A model generated the notes under the pieces. That model was not told where the DNA came from. It saw only the letters and a list, made by a program, of their open reading frames with translations, and did no database searches. The position numbers were made by a program, and so were the translations under genes. A DNA stretch of 60,320 bases, filler included, from Thelocarpon superellum (lineage: Eukaryota), in NCBI GenBank assembly GCA_026025795.1. It is 3 parts of 3 records of this genome, joined end to end, with 100 filler letters (N's around TTAATTAATTAA, not from the genome) between each part and the next. Parts side by side here need not be neighbours in the genome. Positions count along the whole stretch, not along the records: positions 1 to 20,110 come from JAPEUG010000333.1; 2 more parts are not named here. The stretch is one strand, 5' to 3'. Below, one piece after another: positions 1-40,324 of the stretch. Within the stretch, counting starts at the first letter, position 1; every line of letters starts with the position of its first letter.

Positions 1-1031
1 CAGCGGACGAACTCGTCCAGTGTCCCCGCGATAGCCTCGCCGAACCCTCGCTGGCTCTCCGACCTTAAAGGGCGAGTTGGGAGATGCATTCTCTTCGGAT
101 TACGCCCGGATCAAGCAGAGGAAGCCGGACGAATCTCCAGACGCCTGGCCACCAGCTGGAGAGAACTCCTTGCCGGCAGCGAAGGATATTTGACGGATCG
201 ACACCGGAGGGGACTCTACAGGCAGTCGGTGGTGTGGGGTGAGATGGTGGGTGGCTTGGTCCTTCATCAGCATGGGGCTGTTTGGCCCTCTCGACGAGAC
301 CGCATGGCTGACGCATGAGTCCGGCTGGACGCGGCAGGATAGGACGTCATGGTATGTCATCGCGTCGTCCCTCACACTGGCCATGACTCACTGATGCATA
401 GGGTATGTTGGACAAGAGAGGCGCCCACGATTTACCGAGCTGACAATCTTTGGAGGGCATGTGAACAATGTCACCTACATCCGGTACGCTGAAAGCGCGC
501 GGGTGAACTGGGCACAGCAGGTAGCTCTCCACGTCGATGCCGCCCACAAACAGGAGTGGCGCGAGCTGGTCAGCTCGCGTGGCGTGGGCCTGATCTTGCG
601 CAGTATGCAGACGGACTACAAGTTTGTGTGTGGGCTCCTCCCAGCTTTACACCTGTACTCTCTGCTCATGCCGTCTGCGACAGCCGATGACCTGGCCTGA
701 TCGAGTGACGGTTTACCACAAGTTGCGGTCGTCGCCGTCAGATGAGGCAGACTCGTTCACCTTGGACGTAATGATCCTCAGCGAGGTGCATCAACGACCG
801 GCGGCCCGTTGTGTCGAGGACGTTGTCATGTATGACTACCGACAAAGCCGGCGAACATCACTTCCACCCTTCATGAGACATGTCTTTACCCAGACATTCC
901 AACAGCAAGAGGCTGAGAAGCAGGCGTACCGTGAGCAGATTCACTCACTGACTCAGCGCGTGGAAGGTCTGGAGCGCGAGACGTGGAACCACGAAGATGC
1001 CAAGGAAAATCTGGGTCGGGTAGAGATGTGA
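1..1031 (+). CDS. Thioesterase / thiol-ester dehydratase-isomerase (hotdog fold, 4HBT-like), 5'-partial
   Basis: Frame open from base 1 (..PRWLSDLKGRVGRCILFGL..WRELLAGSEGYLT..VVWGEM). Predicted exons 1-246, 343-351, 402, 456-625, 684-1031 rebuild WGEMDVMGHVNNVTYIRYAESARVNW...YKFPMTWPDRVTVYHKL, the D-x-x-G-H-V-N-N hotdog thioesterase motif. Confidence 0.85.
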
Positions 1032-2318
1032 CAGGTGCAGCACCATCTATGCCATGTCGTTTTGGAGTGTGCGTGAACGTCATCTCCAGTAGTCCTTCGG
1101 GCCCCGATCGATCATGCGCAGGGCAAACCGCTCGGAGGTGGACGATCTGCTGAAGGTAAGTGGCAGATCGATGGCATGCTCTGCACAGCTCCTGGCACAG
1201 CCATCTGGTATGACGCCCGCGTTGGGCCATTCCGCCAATTGGCTAGAAGAAAGTCGAAAGATGGCCAGCCTAAGCAAAAATGACGCATCACCTACCCCGC
1301 TTGGACCAGGTCAATTGGTGGCGTAAGCTTTCGGTGCGCTCGTGCAGCATTTCAGTTGGTGCGGCTCATCTCCCGGAGAACGGGGAACGGAGAGGGGAGA
1401 GCGATGACGGGCGTGACAGGGTCATGAAATGGCACTTGGGCCAGCTGGTCATCGACGTGCGATGAGATGGCATGAATGCCTTGATACCTCCCAGATGCAG
1501 GAGCTGTGCAGCCGTAGCATGTAGAAAGCCTACCTAGACCCAGCGTCCGTCTGCACGACAGCTCCGAGAATTTTAGTTTGAGTCCGCGGACGAGTCAAGG
1601 AGCACAAGTAAGAGTGGTGTGGGAAGTCGAGGCTTTGACTTTTAATGCGACGGATCGTCGGGGAAGGTAAAGTAACCGGCTGCTTCAAGCACCCTTAGAC
1701 TTGGAGGAGGAGGGAGTAGTGAGCATGGGCGCCGAGTAACATTAACATTAACTAGTCTCGAGCGTCCAGTGATGAGTAACGAGCAAGGAACGCTCTGCAC
1801 TGTGGCATTATTCGCCGCACTCGTGCTTGCTGCTTGTGCCGTTTTGTTTCCAGCCCTATTCAGGCCCCAACGACGCCGCTCCTCGTGCTCCAACTCTCCC
1901 TGCGACGAGTTTTGTACTCCGTACTTCGGACTCCCGTACACAATCCTCCGCCCTCCGGCTGTTACTGGAGCAAACCTACACCAGCGCCAAGTAATTAGGA
2001 AGCCCTGCGGACCCTGGGCTCCACCACAAATCACACATCACCGCCCGTTGACCACAAACACTGACGACAAACCGTCCCACTTCGCCGCACTGAGGCCCCA
2101 GCACTATCATCACCCCACTCGTCACCCTACTCGCCCGCCCACTCGTCCTCGGAGTCATGATGATGCGTTTCGGAGCCGACTACGACTAACAGCTCCGACT
2201 TTGATCTTGATCCCGCCGTCTCCCCACCCGTCGTGGCCGTGTCCCATGTGGTGGCTTCGTTTCCGTCCCTTGCTCGAGCTGGCCGCGAGCCGTGTGCCCC
2301 CTCCCCGGATGCCGCCCG

Positions 2319-20110: not shown

Positions 20111-20210
20111 NNNNNNNNNNNNNNNNNNNNNNNNNNNNNNNNNNNNNNNNNNNNTTAATTAATTAANNNNNNNNNNNNNNNNNNNNNNNNNNNNNNNNNN
20201 NNNNNNNNNN
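20111..20210. other. Artificial contig linker (44 N + TTAATTAATTAA + 44 N)
   Basis: Exactly 100 nt with a palindromic six-frame stop core; identical to the linker at 40225. Confidence 0.97.
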
Positions 20211-40224: not shown

Positions 40225-40324
40225 NNNNNNNNNNNNNNNNNNNNNNNNNNNNNNNNNNNNNNNNNNNNTTAATTAATTAANNNNNNNNNNNNNNNNNNNN
40301 NNNNNNNNNNNNNNNNNNNNNNNN
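40225..40324. other. Artificial contig linker (44 N + TTAATTAATTAA + 44 N)
   Basis: Identical to the linker at 20111; genes on both sides are truncated. Confidence 0.97.

Follow-up and report, generated by a model that had tools for sequence, protein, structure and literature searches.

A conserved single-nucleotide exon in the predicted active-site motif of a putative fungal hotdog thioesterase

Exons of a single nucleotide have been described in fungi and in plants. In Fusarium, a 1-nt exon was reported in the CYP621A P450 genes (Nelson and Syed 2026, PMC12940212). Arabidopsis APC11 contains a constitutive 1-nt exon (PMC4674806), VPS55 likewise has a 1-nt exon (PMC8831610), and long reads from Coprinopsis cinerea placed 1-nt exons in 13 genes and 2-nt exons in 50, indicating that exons this short are rare but routine in fungi (PMC12230235). 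Fungal stwintrons of the [D1,2] and [A2,3] types also involve two consecutive intron-definition splicing reactions at one site, and have been linked to 1-nt intron shifts (PMC5587772).

Here we analyzed a window, meaning the whole 60,320-nt stretch of Thelocarpon superellum DNA under study, in which a sequence-only reading had proposed that the single base G402 and a 9-nt exon upstream of it assemble the active-site motif of a hotdog thioesterase. On the features tested, G402 belongs with the 1-nt exons of Fusarium CYP621A, Arabidopsis APC11, VPS55 and Coprinopsis. As in CYP621A, a single G is embedded in AG-G-GT within a conserved glycine codon of a conserved motif, the exon is missed by gene models, intronless relatives provide a length marker, and the host belongs to Pezizomycotina. 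The two cases differ in that the G is the middle base of its codon in CYP621A and the first base in the thioesterase, and in that the former is known from 20 orthologs of one genus whereas the latter spans three classes. Furthermore, the upstream acceptor in CYP621A is described as fitting the CAG consensus whereas the thioesterase orthologs share conserved weak signals, and RNA reads span the Fusarium exon whereas the exon in the window is known from sequence. The thioesterase locus also has, unlike CYP621A as described, an upstream 9-nt exon and a 2-nt variant.

The APC11 and VPS55 exons are similarly conserved single bases located between two spliceosomal introns, required for the reading frame and accompanied by intron-loss orthologs. 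They differ in residing in plant genes with longer introns and in having been tested by reporters and RT-PCR, and VPS55 differs further in that forms with and without the exon are described from early land plants (PMC8831610). Coprinopsis is a basidiomycete, and the accessible part of that report names no thioesterase and makes no cross-species comparison (PMC12230235). In stwintrons one intron interrupts a signal of the other with no exon between them (PMC5587772), whereas both introns in the window are complete. Our literature search, with subscription journals mostly outside its reach, returned no paper on a 1-nt exon in the thioesterase gene.

The gene occupies the beginning of the window, and its parts are as follows.

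1-246, plus strand: coding exon, truncated at the contig start, with its upstream part on another contig of the genome (G000:C130, locus L002); ends with W-G-E-M.
247-342, plus strand: intron A, 96 nt, phase 0; GTGGGT donor, GCTGAC at 307-312, TAG acceptor.
343-351, plus strand: 9-nt microexon coding for D-V-M, including the putative catalytic Asp.
352-401, plus strand: intron B, 50 nt, phase 0; GTATGT donor, ACTGAT at 390-395, TAG acceptor.
402, plus strand: 1-nt exon G402, the first base of the Gly codon preceding H-V-N-N.
403-455, plus strand: intron C, 53 nt, phase 1; GTATGT donor, GCTGAC at 439-444, rare GAG acceptor.
456-625, plus strand: coding exon, from H-V-N-N to Y-K-F; PF13279 (4HBT_2), E 1.6e-7, above the cut-off.
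626-683, plus strand: intron D, 58 nt, phase 0; position common to 37 other distinct segments.
684-1031, plus strand: last coding exon, stop at 1029-1031; PF13279, E 9.4e-8.

The exon and intron coordinates between 247 and 455 are exactly those of the sequence-only reading. The first exon is an open frame with 44-68% identity to 33 fungal family members, and contig C130, which shares a 127-nt overlap with contig C261, extends this frame upstream to a likely ATG at L002:1390, chosen by family lengths. The resulting predicted protein of 294 aa begins with a leader rich in Arg, Ser and Ala and is probably targeted to mitochondria. With intron D removed, the portion of the gene within the window stays open over 257 codons. 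Introns B and C each end at the first AG past the branch (7 nt away in B; in C the GAG, 12 nt past the branch A), and the exon following intron C opens with the last two bases of the Gly codon. Intron A, whose position is common to 25 of 63 distinct orthologous segments, has a long branch-to-AG distance that is conserved (median 21.5 nt), and in the window a GAG at 317-319 and a CAG at 335-337 lie between its branch site and the used TAG. This CAG precedes the acceptor by five bases and does not fit the frame of the 9-nt and 1-nt exons, so that its use would shift the frame and could yield unproductive transcripts. Pairs of 44-N runs at 20111-20210 and 40225-40324 mark the window as three joined pieces, of which contig C261 makes up 1-20110 only. 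An Rfam search over window positions 1-1500 gave nothing credible, its one match falling far under the cut-off.

To what extent does the gene need G402? When no more than three introns are allowed, 552 GT/GC-AG paths stay open, and a single one of them yields the 12-residue family motif. When G402 is skipped a stop follows two codons on, and when 403-455 is retained translation meets a TGA at 441, both as had been anticipated from the sequence; skipping of G402 and every retention form place the stop upstream of intron D. Skipping of the 9-nt exon alone keeps the frame and loses the Asp, a loss that would be invisible to NMD. The full pattern of donor, branch, AG, one base, donor, branch and AG occurs once in the window, at G402, against a mean of 0.05 and a maximum of 1 over 40 dinucleotide shuffles. 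The half pattern of branch, AG, one base and donor was not enriched genome-wide (11 matches, against 21 in a reversed control), and the argument is therefore built on the complete anatomy, the reading frame and the orthologs; the other 10 of these 11 genome matches held no convincing 1-nt exon. Taken together, G402 lies between two complete introns, is required for both the frame and the conserved motif, and has a layout that is kept in orthologs, with intronless orthologs serving as a length marker. We regard the existence of the exon as close to certain.

The two long exons downstream of G402 match PF13279 (4HBT_2) with 32.2 and 33 bits, against a curated cut-off of 25.5, and the gene product, judged by this family match, is probably a hotdog-fold acyl-CoA thioesterase. 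The bacterial 4HBT_2 thioesterases of known structure (2fuj, 3qy3, 5byu) share the motif found around the microexons, and the fungal protein adds to them an N-terminal extension and a C-terminal tail. Over the motif, the homolog P0015 aligns with 2fuj and 3qy3 (Asp and G-H-V-N-N), and the motif of the window differs from that of P0015 by one residue. By analogy to YbgC D18 and to Asp17 of 4HBT-I (PMC2698920), the Asp encoded by the 9-nt exon is the likely catalytic residue. The proposal that the 1-nt and 9-nt exons build a hotdog thioesterase motif is thus borne out by the unique path, the orthologs and Pfam.

Across the 120 listed homologs, the 12-residue motif is intact in 75, with the Gly present in 71 of these and the motif length constant in all of them. 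The other 45 are garbled exactly at the motif, and 44 of the 45 are NCBI gene models. Several of the garbled models read G followed by intron letters, as the AG-G-GT layout predicts. In the A. alternata cluster, 14 of the 15 listed members (of 39) have no intact motif.

We scanned metagenome contigs for orthologous loci and evaluated the best 80 of 185, of which 4 were truncated before the motif and were dropped, leaving 76. The AG-G-GT layout, which the sequence-only reading had suggested looking for in other Pezizomycotina, occurs at the same codon as a 1-nt exon in 33 of the 76 loci (27 with intron A and 6 without). A 2-nt exon, with intron C one base downstream, was found in 5 loci, intron B without C in 18, intron A only in 1 and no motif intron in 19, and none of the 76 evaluable loci has C without B. 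The 37 loci without a separate exon have lost intron C or all three introns, and the 19 loci that are intronless at the motif act as length markers. In 16 of 27 distinct orthologous 1-nt segments the 1-nt path is unique; in the other 11 the GT path was chosen by the strongest donors at shared positions, and the alternatives either alter conserved residues or likewise use a 1-nt exon. Two unspliced gene calls, P0187 (Logan, Aureobasidium-like) and P0270 (JGI), end in D-S-M-G followed by a stop, and may represent partly spliced RNA, or else genes in which intron B was lost but C retained, an arrangement absent from the 76 loci.

After clustering at 90% protein identity, in a set without the window and without L031, which has no model, the 1-nt form is present in 19 of 43 clusters. 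In a FastTree phylogeny with the motif columns omitted, whose backbone is poorly supported and in which the window is unplaced, 1-nt loci group with named Pleosporales, other Dothideomycetes, Aspergillus and Chaetothyriales, and Pleopsidium and Haloplaca, such that the 1-nt clusters fall among Dothideomycete, Eurotiomycete and Lecanoromycete proteins, that is, three classes. Loci near Leotiomycete names have intron B only or are intronless, and the highest identity of the window is 63%, so that a close relative is absent from the set. Read against the species phylogeny, one old gain of intron C followed by many losses is the simplest reading, the tree itself being no proof. The 2-nt exon (GG) occurs in L023, L024 and L025 (duplicates L026 and L027), which group with Aureobasidium and have a strong GTGAGT donor at C, and is an apparent 1-nt intron shift. 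In L030, L058, L063 and L070, intron D is displaced upstream by one base relative to 38 other segments, so that it falls inside the Phe codon, and has an AAG acceptor in 4 of 4; this offset is a second 1-nt intron shift within the gene.

In 12 of 64 sequences searched, all of them Pleosporales-like, the stop codon is followed by a conserved non-coding element of ~125 nt (L028:2747-2871 and 11 further loci). The element was not detected in the window and has no Rfam match, and its consensus fold is weak, compensation being seen at 1 of 18 pairs. The structures described in Pezizomycotina include one named 'thioesterase family protein 3' UTR' (PMC8216456), which may or may not belong to this gene.

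As for transcripts, two metatranscriptome runs (X1 and X2) contained 7% of the words of the window, and their contigs cover 840-990 (with no differences), 1056-1258 and a stray 2813-2852; the junction region 246-456 is outside this coverage. The 203-nt contig at 1056-1258, present in both RNA runs, maps to the gene's 3' flank (4 differences) and may be the 3' UTR of a close strain or library DNA.

Orthologous mRNA offers indirect evidence that the exon is included. The A. alternata protein P0147, with NCBI, JGI/IMG, Logan and ENA among its sources, was rebuilt from locus L050 by an exhaustive exact search, which gave 2 solutions, both using the 9-nt and 1-nt exons (exons of 138, 89, 9, 1, 167 and 20 nt). 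Logan gene calls elsewhere run straight into these introns, that is, they involve no splicing, and the unbroken 288-aa Logan ORF behind P0147 therefore points to an intron-free contig, which, on its source label as distinct from reads, is most simply RNA-derived. Similarly, P0043, a Logan-only ORF in an Exserohilum cluster, has an intact motif where the three NCBI models of the cluster are garbled. These ORFs indirectly support inclusion of the 1-nt exon in the mRNA of A. alternata and Exserohilum orthologs. Skipped isoforms were sought among 120 listed short homologs, a survey of little power in that most of these are genomic read-through, and no such transcript was found: 62 run on into intron A and 51 do so into intron B, 2 close with D-x-x-G followed by intron-like residues, 4 are off-pattern, and the one skip-like sequence (P0196) is an NCBI gene model.

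To characterize the splice signals around the exon, we counted distinct segments, the window included, and used introns A and D of the same gene as acceptor controls, because noise made unannotated DNA unsuitable as a baseline (the window gave 9 matches and locus flanks 26, against ~11 in shuffles). The acceptor of intron B is AAG in 28 of 31 microexon segments, whereas intron A has this acceptor in none of 26 and intron D in 7 of 38; at B the window has TAG, unlike most orthologs. An AAG at B is also found in 11 of 17 segments that have no intron C, and is therefore not solely an adaptation to the 1-nt exon. The -3 base of B changed 6 times on the tree, compared with 15 times for D (35 rows), whereas its -4 and -5 bases change as freely as those of D, and the branch is non-consensus in 16 of 48 B introns compared with 1 of 38 D introns.

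The donor of intron C is similarly unusual. In 1-nt segments it has +3A in 28 of 28 and lacks +5G in 25 of 28 (25 of 27 without the window), whereas +5G is missing from no B donor (0 of 47) and from 5 of 26 A donors. The identical GTATGT donors on which the sequence-only reading had remarked are indeed seen in the window but are peculiar to this genome, the orthologous C donor having no +5G in 25 of 27. Donors without +5G rely on upstream bases that pair with U5 loop 1 (PMC11732430), and the bases upstream of the C donor, before B is removed, are B's own AAG and the exon G. Among distinct C introns the acceptor is AAG in 7 of 31 and GAG in 1 of 31, in keeping with the earlier description of the GAG as rare. 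All three lineages with YAG at B (L032, L079 and the window) have AAG or GAG at C, an association with a post hoc Fisher p of 0.015 across lineages that are not fully independent. Against a simple account, the C donor is weak in L032 and L079 even though their B acceptor is YAG. In each of the 31 distinct microexon segments, AAG or GAG is present at the acceptor of B, of C or of both.

A general rule that a 1-nt exon requires a weak AAG or GAG acceptor failed at L085, where both acceptors are CAG. This locus holds a second 1-nt exon of the genome, a T at L085:1517 (G000:C84) in a ubiquitin-conjugating enzyme gene (PF00179); the T is flanked by introns of 74 and 71 nt, each with a CAG end, and is the second base of a Met codon.

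We favor the reading that G402 is a true, constitutively included 1-nt exon and that inclusion is the whole story, with a probability of roughly 0.78. Introns B and C would be ordinary short U2 introns, each recognized across its own length. Such intron definition operates in Pezizomycotina (PMC5587772), and under it the single base never has to be recognized as an exon.

The factors at the B acceptor and at the C donor require the same few bases. Because the two sites overlap, the introns would be removed successively, with G402 joined to one neighboring exon and only then to the other; we infer both this sequential removal and its order. In most orthologs, a slow 3' end of B (AAG, often with a non-consensus branch) would leave C to be spliced out first, and the AAG suggests this order for the orthologs that have it. 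In the window the cues are reversed, with TAG at B and a strong donor and GAG acceptor at C, and B may be removed first.

Whether the weak signals are themselves selected is a separate matter. We hold only tentatively that this is an ancient 1-nt exon, shared by three fungal classes, whose flanking splice signals are kept weak by selection that fixes the order or rate of splicing. Were this so, the tail of intron B would serve as the 'exon side' of the donor of C, and reversion of the B acceptor to YAG would move the weak site to C, as in the window. The same signals could instead mark a conserved splicing rheostat, a wider version of the on/off switch that the sequence-only reading had suggested, in which the exon is real and partial skipping or retention, coupled to NMD, tunes thioesterase level. 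Consistent with this are the AAG acceptor of B (28/31, against 0/26 for A and 7/38 for D), its slowly changing -3 base (6 changes against 15 for D in 35 rows), its non-consensus branches (16/48 against 1/38), the missing +5G at C (25/28 against 0/47 at B) and the AAG or GAG at C in 3 of 3 YAG-at-B lineages (post hoc p = 0.015, not fully independent), as is the finding that the skipped and all retained forms stop upstream of intron D. Yet any skipped frame-shifting exon stops early, so that this last point is no sign of regulation, 19 of 76 loci are intronless at the motif and 18 have no C, and our search, although of low power at the protein level, found no skipping transcript, P0196 being an NCBI gene model. 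We therefore consider a rheostat unlikely, while noting that a regulatory role of the G402 site is possible and compatible with the conserved weak signals.

The explanations that dispense with the exon fare worse. It is very improbable that 352-455 is one intron with another acceptor (418 or 439), or that 343-351 is unused, giving an altered in-frame motif: such paths are open and have strong donors, and GAG acceptors are rare, but they insert 5-12 residues into the motif or delete D-V-M, whereas motif length is fixed in intact homologs. Moreover, the acceptor at 418 is likewise GAG and lacks a branch consensus immediately before it, and that at 439 (CCGAG) shares bases with the branch site of C. 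A fault in the assembly, or recent breakage of the gene, in which one base is missing from a single true intron 352-455, might be entertained given a fragmented assembly of 797 contigs, but other fungi have the internal branch-AG-G-GT at this codon in 33 independent assemblies and the remaining frame is intact over 257 codons, leaving this a scarcely credible reading. Finally, the back-to-back introns resemble the alternatively spliced [D1,2]/[A2,3] stwintrons, in which a single G is common to the two internal introns (PMC5587772), and the sequence-only reading had likened their ordered removal to that of fungal stwintrons. That likeness does not hold up, and unless non-canonical donors are in use, the sequence itself argues against nested introns with no exon between them, which are extremely improbable here: a stwintron is defined by an internal intron interrupting a splice signal of the external one (PMC5587772), whereas in the window both introns are complete, no signal is interrupted, and they lie one base apart without overlap. 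Removal of C leaves G-G and not a new donor, the base preceding C is G where [A2,3] needs A, and the reading frame demands that G402 stay in the mRNA.

One-base exons have already been published, and a constitutively included G402 is a further example and not a new kind, although the 2026 paper, with a single genus as its basis, described a fungal 1-nt exon as unprecedented (PMC12940212). What places G402 above a mere annotation fix is that its layout extends over three classes, has a 2-nt variant and is flanked by weak splice signals that are conserved. In practical terms, annotations of this thioesterase family are often wrong at the active-site motif, as in the 45 of 120 listed homologs that are garbled there. 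If the weak signals do not set the order of splicing, the gene is one more well-supported annotation curiosity; if they do, it is a compact test of how adjacent introns with overlapping sites are ordered. Should the reading of weak signals held by selection prove true, the 1-nt, 2-nt, one-intron and intronless versions of the gene would offer a natural series in which to test how one base is shared between two spliceosomes and how 1-nt intron shifts arise.
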